A stretch of 64,000 nt of DNA from an archaeon (GTDB taxonomy: Archaea > Methanobacteriota_B > Thermococci > Methanofastidiosales > NM3), in contig RXIG01000015.1 of the NCBI GenBank assembly GCA_004212155.1, positions 13,040 through 77,039 on the forward strand, given 5' to 3'. Under the pieces are notes generated by a model. That model was not told the DNA's origin. It saw only the letters and a program-made list of their open reading frames with translations, and did not search any database. This document shows positions 22,035-42,465 of the stretch, piece by piece. Numbering within the stretch: the stretch's first letter is position 1; each line of letters starts with the position of its first letter. A program made the translations under genes and the position numbers.

Positions 22035-22082
22035 CGCAGCTATCTAAAAGCTTAAATACGGCCACGGCGAAACGTCCCAAGA

Positions 22083-24371
22083 ATGGCACATAAGGGATTT
22101 ATCGTCCATGCAACCACAACGGTCGAGGACGGCCACCCATTCATAATCCTCTATGGAAGGTTCACAAACAACGAAAGCTTCAAGGCCCTCGTGCCGTATG
22201 CGCCATATTTCTACATAAGGGAACGCGACGTGGAAAAGGCGCGTCCGCTTATCGATGGCACGATAACTGCGCATGATGCCCGCACCTTTGACGATGAGCC
22301 CGTTGCGAAGGTGACGGTCCAACTCCCTTCATCCGTCCGACACCTCCGAACGGCGCTGGAGGAAAAGGGCATCGAGTGTTACGAGGCCGACATCAAGTTC
22401 GAGATGCGTTATCTCATCGACATGGACATCAGAGGATTTGTCACGCTAAAGGGGCCCTCCCACAGAGACGGCAGGGTCGACCACGTGTTCGTATCTCCTG
22501 CCGTCGAGGCGGCAGACCGCCAGGATCTCAAGCTGCGTGTGCTCTCCATTGACATAGAGACGAGCGAGCAGGGACTCGACGACACTTCGGCACCCATCTA
22601 CTCCATCGGCCTCTACGGGGACGGCATCCAGGAAGTACTCTTCAACGGTGCGCCGTGCGAGGGCGCCACCCACTGTGCTGACGAGAAGGCGCTCTTGCAG
22701 GCGTTCAGGCGGCGAATCCTCGACAACGACCCCGACGTCATCGTGGGATGGAACATCGTGGACTTTGACATGCACTACCTGATGGAAAGATTCAAGGCGC
22801 ACGGCATTCCATTTGATATAGGGAGAAGTGAGGCGACGCTCCATCTCAGGACCGAGAGCTCGTTCATCCGGGCCTCCCGCGCACAGGTTGAGGGCAGGAT
22901 GGTGCTGGACGGGATGCACCTGCTGCGCGACTACTTCTATCGATTCGATGACTACCGGCTCGATACCGCGGCACGGGAACTCATAGACGAGGCGAAGCTA
23001 CGATTCGATGGCGACATGACCGCGCTCTACGAGAGCGACCCTGCAATGCTGGCACGCTACAATCTCCATGACGCGTATCTCGTCTACCGCATTCTGGAAC
23101 AAGAGCGCCTCATTGAGCTTACGATGATGCTTTCGACGCTCACTGGCATGCAGATGGACCGGGTAAAGGCATCGATTGCAACGCTCGACTCACTCTACCT
23201 GCGCCGAGCGCGCTCGATCTCGCTCGTCTGCCCGTCGGTAAAAGGAGGTACGCGCATCGCAGTTGCGGGCGGCTACGTCGAGGAGCCCGATGTTGGCATC
23301 TACGACCATGTGCTGCTCTGTGACTTCCGGAGCCTTTACCCCTCGATCATCGCCACGTTCAACATCGATCCCCTCACATTCGACAAGGGCGACATCTGCG
23401 CCCCGAATGGCGCCTGTTTTGGCACGGGGACGTCTGTCATTCCCGCTCTCGTTCTTGAGCTGCTCGAGGCGCGGCAGACAGCAAAGGCCAGCGGCGAGTA
23501 CACGAAGCAGTTTGCCATCAAGATCATCATGAACTCTATATTCGGCGTGCTTGGCAATCCCAACTGCCGATTCTACAACTCGGATATCGCAAACGCCGTC
23601 ACCTCCTTCGGACGCCAGATCATCCAAACCACGGCAGATGTCGTCGAACGCATGGGGTATCACGTCATCTACGGTGACACGGATTCCATCTTCGTCCTCT
23701 CTCGAGCCGATGATGCCAAGAGCGCACGAGAGATAGGACAACGCATCGAACGCGAGATAAACGCCTTTTACAAGGAGTACATACAGAAGAACTTTCATCG
23801 TGAAACGCATATCCACCTCGAATTCGAGACCCATTTTGAACGGTTTTACCTTCCGCGTCAACGCCATGACGAAAAGGGGGCAAAGAAGCGCTATGCCGGC
23901 CTCGTCGACGGGAAGCTGCGCATCGTCGGCCTCGAGTATGTCCGACGCGACTGGACCCAACTTGCCAAGGAGTTCCAGTACGAGCTGCTCAGGAAGGTAT
24001 TCTTCGATGAGGATTACCAGACGTTCATACGCGATTACGTGCATGACCTCAAAAAGGGACGCCATGATGAGAAGCTTGTCTACCGCAAGCGTCTGAGAAA
24101 AGGCGTCGATGAGTATACGAAGACCACACCGCCCCATGTCAAGGCGGCACGCCAGCTCGGGCCGCGCGTGCACGAGAACGGCATGCTCATCGAGTACCTC
24201 ATGACAAGAAAGGGTCCCCAGCCGGCGCAACTCGCCCACGGCATCGACTATGCGCACTATATCGAGAAGCAGATACGGCCGATAGCGACATCCGTTCTCA
24301 CCCTCCTTGGCCTGAAGTTCGAGGATGTGCTGACCGGTGGCTCACAGAAGAAACTGACCGATTTTCTCTGA
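22083..24371 (+). CDS. polB: Family B DNA polymerase (Pol II-like) with 3'-5' exonuclease and C-terminal PIP box
   Basis: SIDIET, GWNIVDFD, YNLHD, DFRSLYPSII, KIIMNSIFG, YGDTDS, KKRYAG; terminal QKKLTDFL. Confidence 0.93.
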   Translation: MAHKGFIVHATTTVEDGHPFIILYGRFTNNESFKALVPYAPYFYIRERDVEKARPLIDGTITAHDARTFDDEPVAKVTVQLPSSVRHLRTALEEKGIECYEADIKFEMRYLIDMDIRGFVTLKGPSHRDGRVDHVFVSPAVEAADRQDLKLRVLSIDIETSEQGLDDTSAPIYSIGLYGDGIQEVLFNGAPCEGATHCADEKALLQAFRRRILDNDPDVIVGWNIVDFDMHYLMERFKAHGIPFDIGRSEATLHLRTESSFIRASRAQVEGRMVLDGMHLLRDYFYRFDDYRLDTAARELIDEAKLRFDGDMTALYESDPAMLARYNLHDAYLVYRILEQERLIELTMMLSTLTGMQMDRVKASIATLDSLYLRRARSISLVCPSVKGGTRIAVAGGYVEEPDVGIYDHVLLCDFRSLYPSIIATFNIDPLTFDKGDICAPNGACFGTGTSVIPALVLELLEARQTAKASGEYTKQFAIKIIMNSIFGVLGNPNCRFYNSDIANAVTSFGRQIIQTTADVVERMGYHVIYGDTDSIFVLSRADDAKSAREIGQRIEREINAFYKEYIQKNFHRETHIHLEFETHFERFYLPRQRHDEKGAKKRYAGLVDGKLRIVGLEYVRRDWTQLAKEFQYELLRKVFFDEDYQTFIRDYVHDLKKGRHDEKLVYRKRLRKGVDEYTKTTPPHVKAARQLGPRVHENGMLIEYLMTRKGPQPAQLAHGIDYAHYIEKQIRPIATSVLTLLGLKFEDVLTGGSQKKLTDFL

Positions 24372-34206: not shown

Positions 34207-35574
34207 ATGCTGTTTGAGAGGATAGAATCCGAGGGACTGGCACATTATTCCTACATCATCGGAGACAGGACGCAGGCTATCGTCATAGACCCGCGCCGTG
34301 ACTGCGACATATATATCCAAAAGGCGCGCGAGGCAGGATGCCGCATCGCCCACATTCTCGAGACCCATCGCCATGAGGACTTCGTCGTGGGATCGATCGA
34401 GCTCTCCGTCAAGACAGGTGCACAGATATGGCATGCCGACGCAGACCTCAACTACAAATACGGCACCGCGGTCCAGGATGGGCAGGAATGGCGCGTGGGT
34501 CGATTCAAGATAGAGGCGGTAGAGACGCCCGGCCACACAACGGGAAGCATGAGCTACCTGCTCTATGACCCGGACAAGACACCATGGGTCGTCTTCACGG
34601 GCGACACGCTCTTTGCAGGAGGTGTGGGGAGGACTGACCTCCTGGGAACAGACCGTATCGAACAGATGTCAGGATACCTCTACGACAGCATATTCACATC
34701 GATACTTTCCCTCAATGACGGCGTCATCGTTTGTCCTGCGCATGGGTCTGGGTCCGTATGTGCCGAATCGATAGCAGAGAGGACGTGGACGACAGTGGGA
34801 CTGGAGAGGAAGTTCAATCCTATGCTCCAATTCGATGACCGTGAGACGTTCATCAAAAACGTGGGCAAGGAGCTCGAGCGTCCCCCCTACTTCAAGAAGA
34901 TGGAAAAGCTCAACGTGCGCGGACCGCCGCTCCTCAGCTCTTTGCAACGGCCCGCAGCGCTCTCGCCTCTCGACTTTGAGGAACGCATGGAGGATTCCTT
35001 CGTTCTTGACACCCGTTTTGAGCTCGAGTTCGGCGCGGCCCACGTACCTGGCGCCCTCTCCATTTGGGAACAGGGGCTTGCCAGTTTCGTTGGGTGGTTC
35101 GTTCCCTACACGAAACGCATTATACTTGTCCCACGAACGGAAGATCCCCTCCCCGCACTGACACAGCTTTACCGGATGGGATATGACGATGTGGCAGGAT
35201 TCCTGCCAGGTGGCATGGTGGCCTGGCATATGTCCGGCAGACCCAGCGAACGGATAGAGACGATGACGGTCCAGGAGTTGTGCACTAGGATAGATGACAA
35301 GGAAGGCACGTGGATACTCGATGTACGTGGCAAGGGGGAGATAGCGCAAAATGGCGCGATACCTGGTGCCCACAATATCCACCTCACGCAGCTGCCCGAA
35401 GCCATAAACGATGTGCCAAAGGACAGAACCGTCTTCATCTTCTGCGGCAGCGGCCTGCGCTCCATGACTGCTGCAAGCCTGCTCAAGAGGAACGGATGGG
35501 ACAACGTCAAGGTCGTCCTGGGGGGCCTTGCCGGATGGAGCTCGTCAACATGCCCTCTTGATCAAACACCGTGA
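34207..35574 (+). CDS. MBL-fold hydrolase fused to two rhodanese domains (persulfide dioxygenase/CstB-like)
   Basis: LETHRHEDF, TPGHT, FTGDTLF..GRTD, PAHG, C-terminal CGSGLRS. Confidence 0.88.
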   Translation: MLFERIESEGLAHYSYIIGDRTQAIVIDPRRDCDIYIQKAREAGCRIAHILETHRHEDFVVGSIELSVKTGAQIWHADADLNYKYGTAVQDGQEWRVGRFKIEAVETPGHTTGSMSYLLYDPDKTPWVVFTGDTLFAGGVGRTDLLGTDRIEQMSGYLYDSIFTSILSLNDGVIVCPAHGSGSVCAESIAERTWTTVGLERKFNPMLQFDDRETFIKNVGKELERPPYFKKMEKLNVRGPPLLSSLQRPAALSPLDFEERMEDSFVLDTRFELEFGAAHVPGALSIWEQGLASFVGWFVPYTKRIILVPRTEDPLPALTQLYRMGYDDVAGFLPGGMVAWHMSGRPSERIETMTVQELCTRIDDKEGTWILDVRGKGEIAQNGAIPGAHNIHLTQLPEAINDVPKDRTVFIFCGSGLRSMTAASLLKRNGWDNVKVVLGGLAGWSSSTCPLDQTP

Positions 35575-35578
35575 ATCC

Positions 35579-36595
35579 ATGAATAAACGAAAGTTGATGG
35601 CAGGAGTGTTCCTGCTGTTGTGCATGCTTGCCGTCGATGTCAGCGCCCATGTTCCGCGGGAGAGCGCCGACAACACGAGCCTCGATACAGCATACCCTAT
35701 CGAGGATCCGCTGAAGTCGTGGGTTTTCTATGATGACATAGCGCATGTGGAACAAGTGCGCTACTACTCGTTCACGATGACCGCAGGACAGAGGATACGT
35801 GCTTCAGTATTTACACCCGATGGGGGTTCGTTCGCGCCTTGGCTAGTTGTCATGGGGCCTACGTTCGACATCTCAGGACCAGTGTTTCCCAATGTGGAGT
35901 TGCCGGATTCATACGGTGCGCTAGTCTACGAGGGATTCAAGCGGGGAGCGGAGTATGAACCGTTCACGCCTGGCGCCTATTATTACACTGCAGAAGCAGA
36001 CATCGTCGTCTCCGGCAACGGCACATACTATATCGCTGTGGCATCCCAGGACGGCACAGGCCCCTTCGGGCTTGCACTCGGCTATGAGGAACGCTATATG
36101 CCCATCGAATGGGTGCGAGTCGCAACCGATGCAATAAGGATACGTATCTGGGAAGGAAAGTCTCTTATAGAAATATTCTATCCTTATGTGGTTGCAGGCA
36201 TTGTATTGTTTGGACTCGCCTGGAAGAAGATGCGTGAAAAAACTAAGACGATAAACGCCTTTATGGGCATAACGCTCATCGTTGCAGCGCTCTACTGTGG
36301 AAGCGGGCTAGCTGTGCTGCACCACTGCTTGGTGTCGGTGGCATTGGCGGGGGTGGGTCCGACCGTCGTTGTGACACTCATCTTTGCAGCACTCCCCCTC
36401 GTCCTTGGTAGAGCGGTATACCGCCTCGGATGGGGTCGTGCGTCCACAAGTGTGGACAGGGCTGTTAGGGTAAAGCTTGCCCTCTATGGCGGATTGGGGC
36501 TGGTCGTATGGGCGGGATTGATCGCTGGACCGTTGATAGCGCTTGGAGGAAGCATGATGCCGCAGGGAGTACTTGTAACATCATCTATGTCATGA
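35579..36595 (+). CDS. Hypothetical exported membrane protein
   Basis: Signal peptide ending VSA|HVP, beta-rich extracellular domain, about 4 C-terminal TM segments. Confidence 0.65.
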   Translation: MNKRKLMAGVFLLLCMLAVDVSAHVPRESADNTSLDTAYPIEDPLKSWVFYDDIAHVEQVRYYSFTMTAGQRIRASVFTPDGGSFAPWLVVMGPTFDISGPVFPNVELPDSYGALVYEGFKRGAEYEPFTPGAYYYTAEADIVVSGNGTYYIAVASQDGTGPFGLALGYEERYMPIEWVRVATDAIRIRIWEGKSLIEIFYPYVVAGIVLFGLAWKKMREKTKTINAFMGITLIVAALYCGSGLAVLHHCLVSVALAGVGPTVVVTLIFAALPLVLGRAVYRLGWGRASTSVDRAVRVKLALYGGLGLVVWAGLIAGPLIALGGSMMPQGVLVTSSMS

Positions 36596-37184
36596 ATCCA
36601 TCGAGGGTGGCTGTCTCGTGGCTGCGCTCAACATTCATGGATGCAGACTTCTCTGCCTTTTTGGGTATGGATTTCCTAAATAGCTCCAGATTTCGCCGTT
36701 TAGGCCTGAACTGACTGTCGTAATAGACGCTCCATAACGAAGCAACCGAGGTATCGGTAATATCTCCCAGCCGCTCCTCAAAGAATCGAACAGTGGACTG
36801 AAGGGAATCGCCCCTGCACTTGAACAGGCCCCGGTCAGTATAGAGCGATATCCATGTCACATGGGGGTTGCCAAGTACGACGATAGTGTGTGGATACCGT
36901 CGTGCCAGGCGGTCGCAGACCATCTGTCCCACATCATGGTGGGGCCTTAAGTGCCCGTGAAGCACTACGTCTGACAACGGTGTGAGGCGAACGAATCCTG
37001 ACATCCTGTGAAGCTCCAATCGTACGGATGACACCATGGCACGGATCTTGGCGTCAATGCGTGTAGAAGCATGCTCAATCTCATATGGCGTCTTCTTACG
37101 CGCATGATTCATCAATGCTGGCGTCGCATTCTTATGACATGAAAGGTAGTCTAGGAAGTTGTTTGGCATGTTCATGATGTCCAC
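36585..37184 (-). CDS. DUF4130 / TIGR03915-like DNA metabolism protein
   Basis: ELHRMSGFVRL, PHHDV..LARRY, LWSVYYDSQF..RRNLELF..IPKK; overlaps the radical SAM gene. Confidence 0.8.
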   Translation of the reverse strand: MDIMNMPNNFLDYLSCHKNATPALMNHARKKTPYEIEHASTRIDAKIRAMVSSVRLELHRMSGFVRLTPLSDVVLHGHLRPHHDVGQMVCDRLARRYPHTIVVLGNPHVTWISLYTDRGLFKCRGDSLQSTVRFFEERLGDITDTSVASLWSVYYDSQFRPKRRNLELFRKSIPKKAEKSASMNVERSHETATLDGFMT

Positions 37185-38395
37185 CTGTCAAGCGTACACT
37201 CGCCCCAACCATTGATGAGGAGGAATGGGGATGCATGTTTCATCCTTGCACCAAGGTAGTGGAGCTGTCTCCTGGAAACGATTGGTTGGGATACCCTTGC
37301 GCTGAGTATCCGAGAAGCTGTGATGGGACCAATGCCGGGAACATGGAGGAGATCCTCATACGTTGCGACGTTTGGGTCAACGGGTCTGTCCAGCACAAGG
37401 CGAGCAAGTTCGAATTTGGGGTCCCGATTCGTGAGCGCACCTTCATCATCGAAGATGGCAAAGAGTTCCTCCAGGGGGAGCTTGTAGACGCGATAAAGCC
37501 AGTCGAGCTGGTAAAGGCGATGTTCTCTCCACCGTGGCTGCATCTTTTCATTTTCAAGCAAGGTGCCTTCCACGGGTGTGAATGCTGAGTAATAGACTCG
37601 CCGCACACTGTATCGCCTGTATTCCTTTATCGATGCACTAAAAATTTCATCATCGCGTTCATGTGCGCCACCGACGATCATCTGCGTCGTCTGTCCCGCT
37701 GGAAGAGGGATGTGCCGTTGTAGTGAGCAGATGTACCTTTGCCTGCGTAAGATGTCATTGACATAATCCTTGCTCGTAGATAGTTCGTCCATGCGTGAAG
37801 GAGAGACCGTCTCTATGTTTACGCTCACACGATCAGCAAGCTCAAGGCACTGTTTGATATGCTCCTTCGATGCACCCGGCAAGACCTTGAGGTGCACATA
37901 TCCCTGAAACGCATATCGGGTGCGGAGGATGTGCACAGACTCGATCATACCCTCCATTATATCATCGACATCCGAACCAATGCCAGAGCTAAGGAAGAGG
38001 CCTTCGATGTAGTTGCCGCGATACAACTGCACGGTAAGGCGGGCGAGTTCCTCGGGCGCATAGGCATAATCACCGGAGTGTGAAGCGCATGTCGAAGCGT
38101 TGGGGCAGTAACCGCACTCGTGAACGCAACTGTTGGTGTAGAGTGTTTTGAAAAGGCTCACGCAGCGCCCATCGTGTGAGAAGGAGTGGCATACGCCGCC
38201 GCTTGCAACATCACCTAACCGCTGGGTCCCCTTCGGAGTGCGCGAACAAGCTGAAGACACGCATATGTCATGCTTTGACCCCTCACCCAGTGCCCGGACC
38301 TTCGCCATGTCATACACTCCCTCACTGCCCAGGGGGCCAAGTGTATCGAAGCGGCTTTCGTTAGCCAAGTGCAGTATCTTATCGAGTGAAGTCAC
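37172..38395 (-). CDS. Putative DNA modification/repair radical SAM protein (TIGR03916-like)
   Basis: GVCHSFSHDGRCVSLFKTLYTNSCVHECGYC, YIEGLFLSSG, GQTTQMIVG, RVYYSAF, REHRLYQLDWL, HhH VPGIG. Confidence 0.9.
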   Translation of the reverse strand: MTSLDKILHLANESRFDTLGPLGSEGVYDMAKVRALGEGSKHDICVSSACSRTPKGTQRLGDVASGGVCHSFSHDGRCVSLFKTLYTNSCVHECGYCPNASTCASHSGDYAYAPEELARLTVQLYRGNYIEGLFLSSGIGSDVDDIMEGMIESVHILRTRYAFQGYVHLKVLPGASKEHIKQCLELADRVSVNIETVSPSRMDELSTSKDYVNDILRRQRYICSLQRHIPLPAGQTTQMIVGGAHERDDEIFSASIKEYRRYSVRRVYYSAFTPVEGTLLENEKMQPRWREHRLYQLDWLYRVYKLPLEELFAIFDDEGALTNRDPKFELARLVLDRPVDPNVATYEDLLHVPGIGPITASRILSARVSQPIVSRRQLHYLGARMKHASPFLLINGWGECTLDRWTS

Positions 38396-38451
38396 ATAGG
38401 AAGTAGGGTATCCAGATTAATAATATTTGAGAGAGCAGCAGTAAGGTGAGA

Positions 38452-39894
38452 TCATGGATGCGTTTCCATGCGTTCTACGTAGCGTGACATGTCGAACTTG
38501 CGTTCAAGACCCCTGTCGTTCATGTAGCGCACCTTTCCGAAGACCGGGCGTTCCTTCCATGGGCGGTCATGATTACCAAAGCACCAGGCAAGCCCTGCAT
38601 ATCCGTTCGGATCACGCCCATCGAGCTCATATCGATTGTTGAGCTCAAGTGCCCTCGAATAGGCGTCGGCTGGCGTTTCGCTCCACTCGAGGATCTTTTT
38701 TCCCCAGTACATGCGCATATACCCGTGCATCTTGCCTGTGTTGACCATTTCCTTCTGTGCTGCGTTCCAATACGAATCGTGCGTTCGGGCGTTTTCAAGC
38801 TCGTCGTAAGAGTATATATGTTCCCGTCTATCATCGGCATGGTCTTCAAGCGTTGCCCGGGCCCAGGAAGAGACGCCCATAAGCGTATCGTAGTTGGAGT
38901 TGTAATGCACATAGTTCATCGCAAGCTCTCTGCGTACGACAAGCTCCTCGAGGAACGCATCGGCCCCTTCTGTCTGGTGGCCCAACACCGTGCTTGCGAC
39001 AGTGACAGGTGAGATCTGTCCAAAGTGCAAATAGGATGACAAGTGTGAAACGCTGTCCTCAGCAGGGTCGTTGCGAAGCGATGCGTAGGTTGGCAGCTTT
39101 TGTTCCACGAACTCTGATAAAAGACGCTGTGCCACGCTCGTACCCCCCTTGAACGTCGAGGATAGCTGTCGTGTTCTCGTCTTCGCAAGCGTTCTGAGAA
39201 GCAAGCGCCGGTCCTTTTGCAACAACCCCGTCTCATCACGTTCAGACGATGTGATGGTGACCTCCTCGTGATGAGGTGCCACCAAGTATGTCAAGGCATG
39301 CTTCCATATCTTCGGTCGTATGGTGGCGGCAGAGTATTCCTCCTTCTGTGACGTAACACCCAGTGGTACCACGACGTTTGTCTCCACCATTACCATAGGG
39401 CATGTGACGGATGATGAGATTCGCTCCCTCCAGGCCTTGCCACTGCGAACATAGTCCGCATCGGTAACGAGAAGCGCGGCGTCCTCGGAGAGGGCTGTGA
39501 CGATTCCTTCTGGTTCACCCTTGCGTACGATGAATCCGATACCGCGGTTGGCAAGAGAACGCTTCACCTCATCGATGCCTTCGAGCATGAACGCATAGTG
39601 AAGCCCTGTCGCGAAAGGGAGTGAAGGTATGATGCAAAATAGTACGAGGACTGGCAGACGCAAAGCGTTTGCAGAGATGACCGCATACTCAAGCGCGTGA
39701 TTGTCCTCTGCGCGCTGCGATGCATGCATCCAGTAGAGCACATAGTCGCCGCCATGTCCTCCTCCTTGTGTTAGCAGGTGTATCCGTTCTGAGGCAAAGG
39801 GCAACTGTTCATCGGCAGGTACGTTGCTAATGAATTCCGCACCCCCCAATGTTATCTCGATGCCACCATAGCATGGTACTCCACTGGTAGACAT
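38452..39894 (-). CDS. phr: Class II CPD photolyase; true start probably near 39830
   Basis: VLYWMHASQRAEDNHALEYA, EYSAATIRPKI, SHLSSYLHFGQIS, EELVVRREL, GKMHGYMRMYWGKKILEW, DGRDPNGY, FGKVRYMN. Confidence 0.93.
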   Translation of the reverse strand: MSTSGVPCYGGIEITLGGAEFISNVPADEQLPFASERIHLLTQGGGHGGDYVLYWMHASQRAEDNHALEYAVISANALRLPVLVLFCIIPSLPFATGLHYAFMLEGIDEVKRSLANRGIGFIVRKGEPEGIVTALSEDAALLVTDADYVRSGKAWRERISSSVTCPMVMVETNVVVPLGVTSQKEEYSAATIRPKIWKHALTYLVAPHHEEVTITSSERDETGLLQKDRRLLLRTLAKTRTRQLSSTFKGGTSVAQRLLSEFVEQKLPTYASLRNDPAEDSVSHLSSYLHFGQISPVTVASTVLGHQTEGADAFLEELVVRRELAMNYVHYNSNYDTLMGVSSWARATLEDHADDRREHIYSYDELENARTHDSYWNAAQKEMVNTGKMHGYMRMYWGKKILEWSETPADAYSRALELNNRYELDGRDPNGYAGLAWCFGNHDRPWKERPVFGKVRYMNDRGLERKFDMSRYVERMETHP

Positions 39895-40690
39895 CGAGCA
39901 CGTACGACCCTTCCTTCTTGTGCATCACCTCACTAAGGAACGTGGCTAGGCGGGAACGTCTTGTCTCATCTCTAGCAACGAACCTACCCGCCAAGTCATC
40001 GACCGCCTCGCCGACAGATCCATAGGTCATCTCCATCTCCATCTTCGTTACTTCCATATTTGGGTAGATGCCCATGCCATAAAGCACGTTGTAGAGGAGA
40101 TTCGCCTTTGGCCCTGGAACATATGCGTTGCCGTGGATGCGCGGCCACGCCTTGATGTACAGCTCATCCCACGACGTGAGACCTGAAAACCACAGAAGGT
40201 ATACATAACCCGTTGATATGCCGACCATCTTTTTCAACGCAGAGCGAATGTCGTACATGCCAAGGGAGTATGATGCGATGACGACATCATAGCTGCCCTC
40301 GAGATCGGCATCAGCGTCCACGTCCTCCCATGTCTTTTGAATATAGTCGACATTTTCAACGTTCTCCTCCGCGATGTTGCCCTGGAGAAACTCGATCATG
40401 TAGGGCGCGGGTTCGATCGCCGTCACATGGGAAACAACACGAGACAAGGGTATGATTAGAGTCCCTGGGCCGGCACCTATGTCTAGCACCCTGCTCTCGG
40501 GGGATATGTCCATTGACTTCATGATCCTGCGCCCCTTGGCCCAATCATTTCCTTTGATGCGTTCATTGAACTGTTCCACGCGTTCGCGTGAGCTCCAGTA
40601 AAGGTCGTTCTTGCCAATATGCTTTGAAGCGAGATGGCGCTCCATGGTCGTGTGCCAAACTTCGTTCCAATCGATCTCTTCAATTTTCAT
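39827..40690 (-). CDS. Class I SAM-dependent methyltransferase
   Basis: VLDIGAGPG, VTAIEP, WEDV, YDVVIASYSL, LLYNVLYGMGIYPNM. Confidence 0.88.
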   Translation of the reverse strand: MKIEEIDWNEVWHTTMERHLASKHIGKNDLYWSSRERVEQFNERIKGNDWAKGRRIMKSMDISPESRVLDIGAGPGTLIIPLSRVVSHVTAIEPAPYMIEFLQGNIAEENVENVDYIQKTWEDVDADADLEGSYDVVIASYSLGMYDIRSALKKMVGISTGYVYLLWFSGLTSWDELYIKAWPRIHGNAYVPGPKANLLYNVLYGMGIYPNMEVTKMEMEMTYGSVGEAVDDLAGRFVARDETRRSRLATFLSEVMHKKEGSYVLDVYQWSTMLWWHRDNIGGCGIH

Positions 40691-41260: not shown

Positions 41261-42418
41261 TCACGTCACTGCGTTTCGCAGGCTGAGACACGCATCGTGC
41301 TCTAGAGCCCTGCATGTGCGAATAGATTTTTGCAGCTCTTCGACGCGCTCGACGGTAAAGTGTTGCTCCACAGTCTGGGAGGCATCCCATATCGCTTCAT
41401 CTATGGCCTCTGAGAGCCATTCGAGTTGTTTCAAGGCCTCGGGTCCTCGCTTTTCGAAGACGCGGGATTGTTCCTCTGTGAGCGAACGTACCTTGTATGC
41501 CGCATCCCAGTCCTCGGGAAGAGCTACGTTTGCTATATCAGACCACATCAATGCTGCCTCGTCAAAGTCTTCGGCAGCCTTGATCAGTGCATCATTGCAA
41601 ACCCATTCATATGCCTCGCGCAGGAAGGAAGCATACATCTTTCTGAAGGCGCTGCCACCGGTGCCTGCCTGCTCGATATAGAGCATCGTATTGTAGAGGC
41701 ACTCGAAAAGCGATTCTTCAGAAAACATGGCTGGCCACTTCGGTATTGTCATTGCCCACTTCTCCATGCCTGCCAGGCCCAGATTCGATATCGGGGGGTC
41801 GAGCATTCCGTTCGCACATTCAAGGATGGACGCCTTCAACGCATCGATCGTGATCCCCCACTCATCGGGCACTTCCAATTCGATCCACCTGTTACGGGCA
41901 GGAAACGGTGGTGCAGTCGATCCTCGCGCGGCACGCAGCTCGTCGACCGTCAACGTGAACGGATACTCGCTCCTGTCGGCCACCTTCACCTCCTGCGTCT
42001 TTTCGTCAAGTGAGAAGACGGTCACCGTATGTTCCCCAAAGTGTGATTTCGGGGGCATGTACATGTAGGGCAAATGGGCCATGTCGACATAGACGATGGT
42101 CGGTATGCCCTCCTCCAGCTGTGAGATGAGCGCGGCGTGTGCCTTCCTCTCGCTTGTCGTGTGCCGCACGGACGCAGAGGCGCCCACGCGCTCTGCAGCC
42201 TTGATAAAGAAATCGTCGCTTTTTGCTCCGCGGGTTCCGATGAACGGCGCGTTCATGTTCTTGGCATACCAGTAGATGAAGCCGATGCCACCGCCAAGCC
42301 CAAGGAGCATCTCTTCAGATGCGAAACAGCCGAAATGATGAAGTGTATGGCGAAGTGAAGCAGTCTGGCAATGCTTGCCGCCAAGCGTTGTGAATCCGGG
42401 GATGTGCGTGGTCGTCAT
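41261..42418 (-). CDS. BtrH N-terminal (papain-like) plus DUF4872-like domain protein
   Basis: GGKHCQTASL, SEEMLLGLGGGIGFIY, VDMAHLPY, HFGEHTV, GTGGSAFRKMY. Confidence 0.75.
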   Translation of the reverse strand: MTTTHIPGFTTLGGKHCQTASLRHTLHHFGCFASEEMLLGLGGGIGFIYWYAKNMNAPFIGTRGAKSDDFFIKAAERVGASASVRHTTSERKAHAALISQLEEGIPTIVYVDMAHLPYMYMPPKSHFGEHTVTVFSLDEKTQEVKVADRSEYPFTLTVDELRAARGSTAPPFPARNRWIELEVPDEWGITIDALKASILECANGMLDPPISNLGLAGMEKWAMTIPKWPAMFSEESLFECLYNTMLYIEQAGTGGSAFRKMYASFLREAYEWVCNDALIKAAEDFDEAALMWSDIANVALPEDWDAAYKVRSLTEEQSRVFEKRGPEALKQLEWLSEAIDEAIWDASQTVEQHFTVERVEELQKSIRTCRALEHDACLSLRNAVT

Positions 42419-42465
42419 CGTCTGACACCACACTACCATGGAACACACGACATATAACTATTTTT

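Follow-up and report, generated by a model that had tools for sequence, protein, structure and literature searches.

A radical SAM/DUF4130 gene pair of a Methanofastidiosales archaeon with C-terminal tails that probably recruit it to the PCNA sliding clamp

We analyzed a window of 64,000 nucleotides (nt) from a Methanofastidiosales archaeon (NCBI GenBank assembly GCA_004212155.1, contig RXIG01000015.1, positions 13,040 to 77,039 of the forward strand). The work centers on two adjacent minus-strand genes, which encode a TIGR03916/COG4277-type radical S-adenosylmethionine (SAM) protein with a helix-hairpin-helix (HhH) domain (window positions 37172..38395, 407 amino acids, identified by Pfam and NCBIfam matches) and a DUF4130 protein of a short archaeal form with a DHHA1-like predicted fold (36585..37184, 199 amino acids, PF13566). 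The pair is probably a short archaeal version of a widespread two-subunit enzyme, TIGR03916/COG4277 plus TIGR03915/DUF4130, and its C-terminal tails would recruit it to the sliding clamp PCNA for DNA damage processing. Clamp tethering is well supported by sequence comparison and modeling, because the tails are conserved, PCNA-interacting peptides (PIP) and beta-clamp peptides occupy equivalent positions in archaeal and bacterial homologs, the tails resemble the PIP boxes of the same genome, and a complex model places one of them on PCNA. TIGR03916/TIGR03915 is among the more widespread "DNA repair" gene pairs without known chemistry. The Gln-less tails on both subunits and a photolyase gene next door make the present pair a variant of this known, biochemically uncharacterized family. 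If the pair is indeed a clamp client, this would tell where and when the enzyme acts, namely on DNA that carries a loaded clamp, and would offer tail peptides, point mutants, and PCNA-loaded substrates as experimental handles.

C-terminal tails and the PIP boxes of the genome

The radical SAM protein ends in ...GECTLDRWTS and the DUF4130 protein in ...HETATLDGFMT. The canonical PIP box reads Q-x-x-[LIMV]-x-x-[FWY]-[FWY]. In the PIP-like tails ECTLDRWTS (radical SAM residues 399-407; 37175..37201, minus strand) and TATLDGFMT (DUF4130 residues 191-199; 36588..36614, minus strand), position 1 is E and T, respectively, not Gln, and the aliphatic residue at position 4 and the aromatic residue at position 7 are both present (L402 and W405 in the radical SAM protein; L194 and F197 in the DUF4130 protein). 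A preliminary description of this DNA had pointed out ECTLDRW and TATLDGF as PIP-like tails lacking Gln; this proved correct, with two further residues following each.

Whole-genome scanning (assembly of 1.49 Mb in 28 contigs, 89.8% complete; the window lies on contig C17) showed that 7 out of 5508 stop-delimited open reading frames (ORFs) of at least 100 amino acids carry the pattern [ST]L[DE].[FWY] within 14 residues of the C-terminus, compared to 19 of 27540 internal windows. The seven ORFs are the radical SAM and DUF4130 genes, FEN1 (...KQETLDQWF), a family B DNA polymerase (PolB; ...RQSSLEGWF), and three without a Pfam match. A scan with the canonical pattern also found two Nre proteins (...QDTLARWF and ...RQKVLDEWL) and a second PolB (...SQKKLTDFL). 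Judged from the FEN1, PolB, and Nre C-termini, PIP boxes of this genome follow the consensus Q-x-[ST]-L-[DE]-x-W-[FL], and both tails fit it except for Gln and position 8. The tails thus share with these PIP boxes the C-terminal location, the [ST]-L-[DE]-x-aromatic core, and a predicted short helical turn, and differ from them in the residue at position 1, in Thr or Met at position 8, and in having a radical SAM enzyme as cargo. Gln-less PIP boxes occur in eukaryotic translesion polymerases. The Gln-less form described here would widen the known range of archaeal PCNA-binding peptides.

Two further genes with tails of this kind were seen. The second PolB gene is located in the window itself (22056-24371, plus strand, 771 amino acids, PF00136 and PF03104), about 12 kb from the pair, and its tail is of the canonical PIP type; the other PolB gene of the genome is on contig C15. 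On contig C9 (31139-31519, minus strand), 2.6 kb from the FEN1 gene, a 126-amino-acid ORF without a Pfam match ends in the PIP-like ...RSLEEYMGRR; this ORF could encode a small PCNA-binding protein or have arisen by chance.

Conservation of the tails and the switch between clamp-type peptides

Both tails recur in 24 loci of relatives. All 120 closest radical SAM homologs keep xxx[LIM]xxW near the C-terminus, 118 of them within 12 residues of the end and two within 16. In the 118 tails that were scored, Asp is the commonest residue at position 1 (80 tails), followed by Glu (19), Gly (8), Asn (4), Thr (3), His (2), and Ala and Tyr (1 each); Gln never occurs there. The loose motif is kept in 90 of the 91 distinct radical SAM tails from archaeal loci. 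A word-index search with the DUF4130 protein returned only 2 close relatives, and the DUF4130 partner tails were taken from the loci of radical SAM homologs. In 76 of these 82 distinct archaeal C-termini, [LIM]x.[FYW] is found in the last 16 residues (strict form, 53/82), three of the remaining six carry it at a greater distance from the C-terminus, and the canonical Q motif is present in 0/82. The 26-sequence DUF4130 alignment has only 11 invariant columns, and L194 of the tail is among them. Conservation at this level is the mark of tails under selection.

A profile search of 1.84 billion representatives with the radical SAM family gave 7245 representative clusters at E up to 0.001. In homologs the tail comes right after a conserved PF(I/L)xxxG. 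Around a Woesearchaeota homolog, 95 of 116 neighboring sequences end in the canonical Qxx[LIMV]xx[FWY] within the last 14 residues, and 100 of 116 within the last 25. The source-named members of this group are all archaeal (Woese-, Aenigm-, Nano-, Alti-, Hod-, and Helarchaeota, and Methanofastidiosa); taxon labels were taken from source names and plasmid records. In bacteria, all 10 radical SAM homologs compared, from 10 genera and 3 phyla (Pusillibacter, Acetoanaerobium, Thioclava, Phaeobacter, Agrobacterium, Acinetobacter, Ensifer, Azospirillum, Caballeronia, and Gemmatirosa), have QL[SAQ][LI][FLWG] at or near the C-terminus, for example ...SSQLSLF and ...EQLALF, which we take to be the beta-clamp-binding pentapeptide. 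A survey of 150 representatives at 50% identity, made without taxonomy, contained 37 tails with Qxx[LIMV]xx[FWY], 27 with Q[LM]x[LMI][FLW], and 3 with the Gln-less form only. Internal windows matched the PIP and beta motifs in 14 and 2 of 3000 cases and shuffled tails in 28 and 5 of 3000, so that the motifs are enriched at the tails at least 25-fold over both controls.

Comparison of archaeal and bacterial C-termini, a check put forward in the preliminary description, thus came out in favor of conserved tails. The swap of a PIP-type for a beta-type peptide according to the domain of life is hard to explain unless the peptide binds the clamp, and within the group of the window protein the Gln position has drifted to Asp/Glu. 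The homologs from DPANN and Asgard archaea with canonical PIP boxes belong to the same family and have the same gene order and the same tail position after PF(I/L)xxxG. In contrast, Gln is replaced in the window protein and in the group labeled Methanothrix, Thermoplasmata, and Methanofastidiosa to which it belongs, and the present genome is among the few with a photolyase gene next door. The peptide swap is a strong comparative argument that could be used to find clamp clients in other uncharacterized families.

One locus of this set (L094) is a 2.3-kb contig labeled as a Planctomycetaceae metagenome-assembled genome, whose pair has Methanothrix-type tails (...TLEMWQA and ...ASLDDFFL). This contig is probably mis-binned.

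Model of the DUF4130 tail with PCNA

We modeled the complex of PCNA1 (alignment of 16 rows) with DUF4130 residues 166-199 (26 rows). Three runs gave an interface score (ipSAE) of 0.62, 0.60, and 0.61, compared to 0.02 for the best of three controls; at least 69% of contacts were common to the runs, and the partner reached a predicted local distance difference test (pLDDT) score of at least 45. The mark set for such models was reached by 116 of 157 solved complexes and by 2 of 215 mismatched pairs. In the model, L194 and F197 contact PCNA residues 39, 42-46, 124-128, 221-222, and 237-242, a region which we take to be the one where PIP peptides bind. The model, a second check put forward earlier, supports placing the DUF4130 tail in the PIP pocket of PCNA.

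It is very unlikely, in our estimate, that the tails are instead structural elements that dock the subunits on each other or close the active site, with the PIP and beta likeness being a convergence on short amphipathic peptides. The radical SAM tail does follow closely on the folded HhH domain, both tails are without Gln, short motifs arise easily, and the complex model may reflect memory of solved structures. On the other hand, the exchange of QxxLxx[FWY] in archaea for QLSLF in bacteria at one and the same site would be surprising in a purely structural element, and the motifs are enriched in tails over internal and shuffled controls. The motif otherwise appears in this genome on FEN1, PolB, and Nre, and a low-confidence linker of about 50 residues precedes the DUF4130 tail.

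The genome encodes two PCNA paralogs (contigs C20 and C23; loci L109 and L110) that are ∼28% identical. Both were matched in 31 of the 34 genomes of the order searched, the window's own included, and the seven class-level relatives with complete genomes have one. The presence of two paralogs raises the question of a heteromeric or specialized clamp.

The radical SAM and DUF4130 subunits

The radical SAM protein matches PF04055, PF12836 (HHH_3), and PF00633 (HHH), and its HhH DNA-binding domain covers residues 338-379 (37259..37384, minus strand). It scored 323.1 bits against TIGR03916 (E 3e-96, profile positions 3-379 of 415). Because this is below the curated cut-off of 343.5, we regard it as a divergent homolog rather than an equivalog; the cut-off is exceeded in 17 of 41 relatives' genomes. 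The only other NCBIfam match was LipS2 (22.6 bits), and no spore photoproduct lyase (TIGR04070) or SplB-like NCBIfam model matched at E up to 0.001. The CxxxCxxC cluster motif (C90, C94, and C97; 38105..38128, minus strand) is invariant in the archaeal alignment and conserved in 98% of 125 aligned sequences (124 representatives and the window protein).

Three extra cysteines, C45, C69, and C78, are invariant or nearly so in the same archaeal alignment. An auxiliary Fe-S cluster on these residues was considered as a family feature and rejected: their conservation is only 51, 24, and 31%, respectively, in the 125 sequences. They may be a feature of one clade.

The single-chain model of the radical SAM protein has a mean pLDDT of 69.7, with values above 90 over residues 300-400 and lower confidence in the last seven residues; the tail forms one short helix, predicted with less confidence than the folded domains. 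The closest solved folds are those of biotin synthase, HydE, lipoyl synthase, and viperin, and a photoproduct lyase is absent among the 50 fold matches listed. A sequence search of the PDB gave a ComEA-like HhH chain as the only match.

The DUF4130 protein matches PF13566 with 56 bits, above the cut-off of 27, and TIGR03915 with 54.7 bits, far below the cut-off of 112.25 and at profile positions 97-235 of 243 only. It is best described as a Pfam family member of a short form that lacks the N-terminal part (about 90 profile positions), not as a TIGR03915 equivalog. Its model (mean pLDDT 82) has a confident core at residues 10-140 and then a low-confidence stretch; the last 18 residues are below 50 and contain one short helix at 194-197. 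The best fold matches were the linker and DHHA1 parts of RecJ2 (Z 7.6, root-mean-square deviation 4.4, 125 residues aligned), RecJ-Cdc45 (Z 7.3), GdpP, and NrnA. These matches are middling (Z below 8 throughout, and no Foldseek E-value reaching 0.001) and consistent with a DHH/DHHA1-like fold. A PDB sequence search with this protein found nothing.

The two genes overlap by 13 nt (37172-37184) if DUF4130 starts at GTG, the overlap that the preliminary description had given. With an alternative in-frame start, ATG at 37175, the overlap would shrink to the 4 nt ATGA, which include the stop codon TGA of the radical SAM gene (37174-37172). Whichever start is used, the arrangement is that of translationally coupled genes.

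Proposed role and the evidence weighed against it

In the reading that we favor, the radical SAM and DUF4130 proteins most likely form a heterodimer, as a preprint on the bacterial pair suggests (bioRxiv 10.64898/2026.08.19.745780), and would combine a radical SAM core, HhH, and a DHHA1-like nucleic-acid-binding module. The Gln-less PCNA-interacting peptides xx[ST]L[DE]x[WFY] at the ends of both subunits would bring the enzyme to DNA-bound PCNA, either at a replication fork or at a patch under repair, by binding of the kind that the complex model predicts for the DUF4130 tail. At PCNA, 5'-deoxyadenosyl-radical chemistry would be directed at a damaged base, probably in single-stranded DNA. We infer a role in damage processing, that is repair, rather than in routine modification, because LexA control is predicted for the bacterial operon and because repair genes are found among the neighbors.

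The accessible portion of the preprint describes a confident AlphaFold 3 model in which a bacterial pair forms a heterodimer whose narrow channel would suit single-stranded nucleic acid; it gives a DHH-like reading of DUF4130, reads the complex as a SAM-dependent nucleic-acid modification enzyme, and has no mention of PCNA, PIP, or sliding clamp (bioRxiv 10.64898/2026.08.19.745780). COG1573-COG4277 is presented, in the part of PMC8565304 at hand, as a putative base-excision system of the uracil-DNA glycosylase (UDG) type with predicted LexA control, and the COG1533 type is also predicted there to be SOS-regulated in bacteria. Full-text literature searches returned no paper tying the TIGR03916/DUF4130 family to a clamp, and none describing a radical SAM enzyme as a clamp client.

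The bacterial COG1573-COG4277 module (TIGR03914 UdgX-type UDG/TIGR03915/TIGR03916) has the same radical SAM-HhH architecture as the window protein (35-42% identity over ∼90% of the protein), likewise has the DUF4130 partner directly downstream, and carries a clamp-type peptide at the C-terminus of the radical SAM subunit. Unlike this module, whose TIGR03916 model is named "rSAM_link_UDG", the archaeal pair has no UDG domain or gene nearby, a short DUF4130 protein, PCNA-type peptides on both subunits, and scores below the NCBIfam cut-offs. We know of no LexA in archaea, and the regulation of the pair must therefore differ from that of the bacterial module.

Several points weigh against recruitment to PCNA for damage processing. 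Gln is missing from both tails, and they also depart from the canonical PIP box at position 8, where Thr (radical SAM) and Met (DUF4130) take the place of the usual aromatic or large hydrophobic residue. The radical SAM tail begins ∼8 residues past the folded HhH domain in the model, which may restrict its reach. In the canonical-PIP group, 16 of 116 sequences are without the motif even within the last 25 residues, and 83 of the 150 surveyed representatives, which include fragments, fusions, and looser variants, match neither strict pattern. The clamp peptide was found in 0 of the 5 bacterial DUF4130/UdgX-fusion partners detected, so that tails on both subunits are so far archaeal only. Structures of PIP-PCNA complexes have been solved many times, and the high model score may reflect likeness to them; it indicates likeness, not binding. 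The solved radical SAM structures nearest in fold belong to enzymes whose targets are small molecules or proteins. Finally, LexA control is a comparative-genomic prediction and concerns bacteria.

Clamp tethering would fit replication-coupled marking of DNA as well as repair, and eukaryotic maintenance methyltransferases bind the clamp. The pair could accordingly be a post-replicative DNA modification enzyme that uses the tether to mark new DNA, an explanation we consider quite unlikely. The NCBIfam family name leaves "modification/repair" open, a SAM methyltransferase is encoded two genes upstream, and the preprint, in its accessible portion, takes the complex for a modification enzyme (bioRxiv 10.64898/2026.08.19.745780). 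Against modification stand the LexA control of the bacterial operon predicted in the part of PMC8565304 at hand, a bacterial partner that is fused to or located beside a uracil-excising UdgX-type domain, the repair genes among archaeal neighbors, and a patchy presence (24 of 41 relatives), which is more typical of an accessory repair function than of core modification.

A bolder version of damage processing at PCNA, which we hold to be doubtful, would make the TIGR03916/DUF4130 enzyme the first radical SAM sliding-clamp client in both prokaryotic domains, one that, on PCNA or the beta clamp at a stalled fork, would directly reverse or excise a pyrimidine lesion blocking replication in the single-stranded template and that would share work on ultraviolet-type damage with photolyase in this lineage, as a light-independent arm. 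At a stalled fork, the single-stranded template gives excision repair no complementary strand to copy.

Gene neighborhoods

Of the 104 archaeal loci, 96 of them distinct, 94 have the DUF4130 gene co-oriented with the radical SAM gene and directly downstream of it. Photolyase adjoins the pair in 6 of the 96 (L018, L019, L020, L022, L025, and L027), each time directly upstream and co-oriented. Besides the window's own locus, these six comprise one from its genus, two from a sister genus, and two labeled Thermoplasmata; NCBI labels of close relatives are mutually inconsistent. Among 41 relatives, the pair is present in 24 and photolyase in 21. The pair is missing from three relatives that have photolyase, and photolyase from one that has the pair; strict co-occurrence of the two was rejected on this ground. 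Control genomes with matches in the same survey include those of Caulobacter vibrioides and Thermus thermophilus. In a Methanofastidiosum-like genus, photolyase is encoded in 13 of 17 genomes and is never adjacent to the pair, lying ∼27 kb away in two of them. The photolyase link is thus weak, because adjacency is limited to 6 of 96 distinct loci, and photolyase is a lineage-limited neighbor that hints at pyrimidine damage without establishing it.

In six other loci (L029, L030, L031, L034, L035, and L092), the pair is adjoined on the opposite strand by an SplB-like radical SAM gene of the PA0069/Rv2578c type, which scores 121-134 bits against NF033668, under the cut-off, and weakly against TIGR04070 (spore photoproduct lyase). 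These loci share their downstream synteny, including an MMPL transporter gene, with L025 and L027, in which photolyase holds the upstream position. SplB and the SplB-like COG1533 proteins are, like the window protein, radical SAM enzymes linked to DNA damage. The window protein differs from them in belonging to another family and in having an HhH domain, a separate DUF4130 subunit, and a clamp-type tail. No NF033668-type SplB-like gene was found in the present genome, and an SplB-like protein and the pair would therefore not work together here. An AlkD-like gene is downstream of the pair in one locus. Elsewhere, the neighbors are unrelated and follow genus-level synteny (an amino-acid kinase gene, a Pyridox_ox_2 gene, and others). 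Two kinds of neighbor in a minority of loci thus hint at a link to ultraviolet (UV) or pyrimidine damage, without amounting to a conserved operon; if the link holds, photolyase and SplB-like neighbors would narrow the first candidate substrates to damaged pyrimidines.

No UDG gene was seen among the archaeal neighbors scanned. The assembly contains a single UDG-family match (PF03167), which falls on contig C24 and not on the window's contig, in agreement with the preliminary description, which had noted no such gene nearby. Its statement that the bacterial pair is often accompanied by a UdgX-type glycosylase likewise holds, a "UdgX family" fusion protein being named directly downstream in four of the annotated bacterial loci.

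The same description had inferred an archaeal PCNA-coupled radical pathway, possibly the dark anaerobic complement of the photolyase. The PCNA coupling gained support from the tails, the PIP/beta equivalence, and the complex model; the comparison of neighborhoods, with its few photolyase-linked loci and without strict co-occurrence, left the photolyase part weakly supported. We regard it as unlikely that the pair is a light-independent anaerobic counterpart of photolyase that reverses UV pyrimidine photoproducts (cyclobutane pyrimidine dimers, 6-4, or spore-photoproduct-like lesions) by radical chemistry while tethered to PCNA. Such a role would suit the co-oriented photolyase gene directly upstream in six loci and the SplB-like gene adjoining the pair in six others of a related syntenic group, and, according to the accessible text of PMC3765255, DUF4130 belongs in one group with UDGs and SplB-like radical SAM enzymes and might modify thymines. 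It fits poorly with the rarity of that adjacency, with its complete absence in the Methanofastidiosum-like genus despite the photolyase genes present there, and with the relatives that have only photolyase or only the pair. The radical SAM protein, moreover, matches no spore photoproduct lyase model and has no photoproduct lyase among its 50 listed fold matches, the uracil-directed, glycosylase-like partners of the bacterial pair point to single-base lesions, and a possible separate promoter is located between photolyase and the pair.

Organization of the locus

The photolyase, radical SAM, and DUF4130 genes form three co-oriented ORFs on the minus strand, an arrangement noted in the preliminary description and borne out by the ORF list and the family matches. 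The photolyase gene (38452..39894 as a maximal ORF of 480 amino acids) matches PF00875 with 81.8 bits and the class II (phr2) model TIGR00591 with 516.2 bits (E 1e-154, profile positions 7-452 of 453). The curated TIGR00591 cut-off of 550.05 was not reached, nor was it reached by any of the 21 relatives with a photolyase match, and the protein is best called a phr2-type homolog. Its start is probably TTG 39804 (residue 31) rather than ATG 39894, the start given before, because TTG 39804 falls 22 nt past the stop codon of the upstream methyltransferase gene and profile position 7 aligns with residue 37.

The spacer of 56 nt between the photolyase and radical SAM genes contains an AT-rich box, AAATATTATTAAT (38415..38427, minus strand), which we read from the sequence about 20-30 nt before the radical SAM start codon. 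This candidate TATA box may provide the radical SAM/DUF4130 pair with its own promoter. A scan for bacterial-type promoters and terminators, ill-suited to an archaeon, found sites no more frequent than in shuffled sequence.

Directly upstream of photolyase, co-oriented and tightly packed, is the gene for a class I SAM-dependent methyltransferase (39827..40690, minus strand). Two genes upstream of photolyase is a BtrH_N/DUF4872 protein gene (41261-42448, minus strand), whose product scores 105.9 bits against a DarH-like acyltransferase model and does not reach the cut-off of 300. On the other side of the pair, a plus-strand ORF of 355 amino acids with hydrophobic stretches (35528-36595) runs toward the DUF4130 gene, and the 3' ends of the two share 11 nt. 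This ORF has no Pfam or NCBIfam match and is kept in the same-genus relative.

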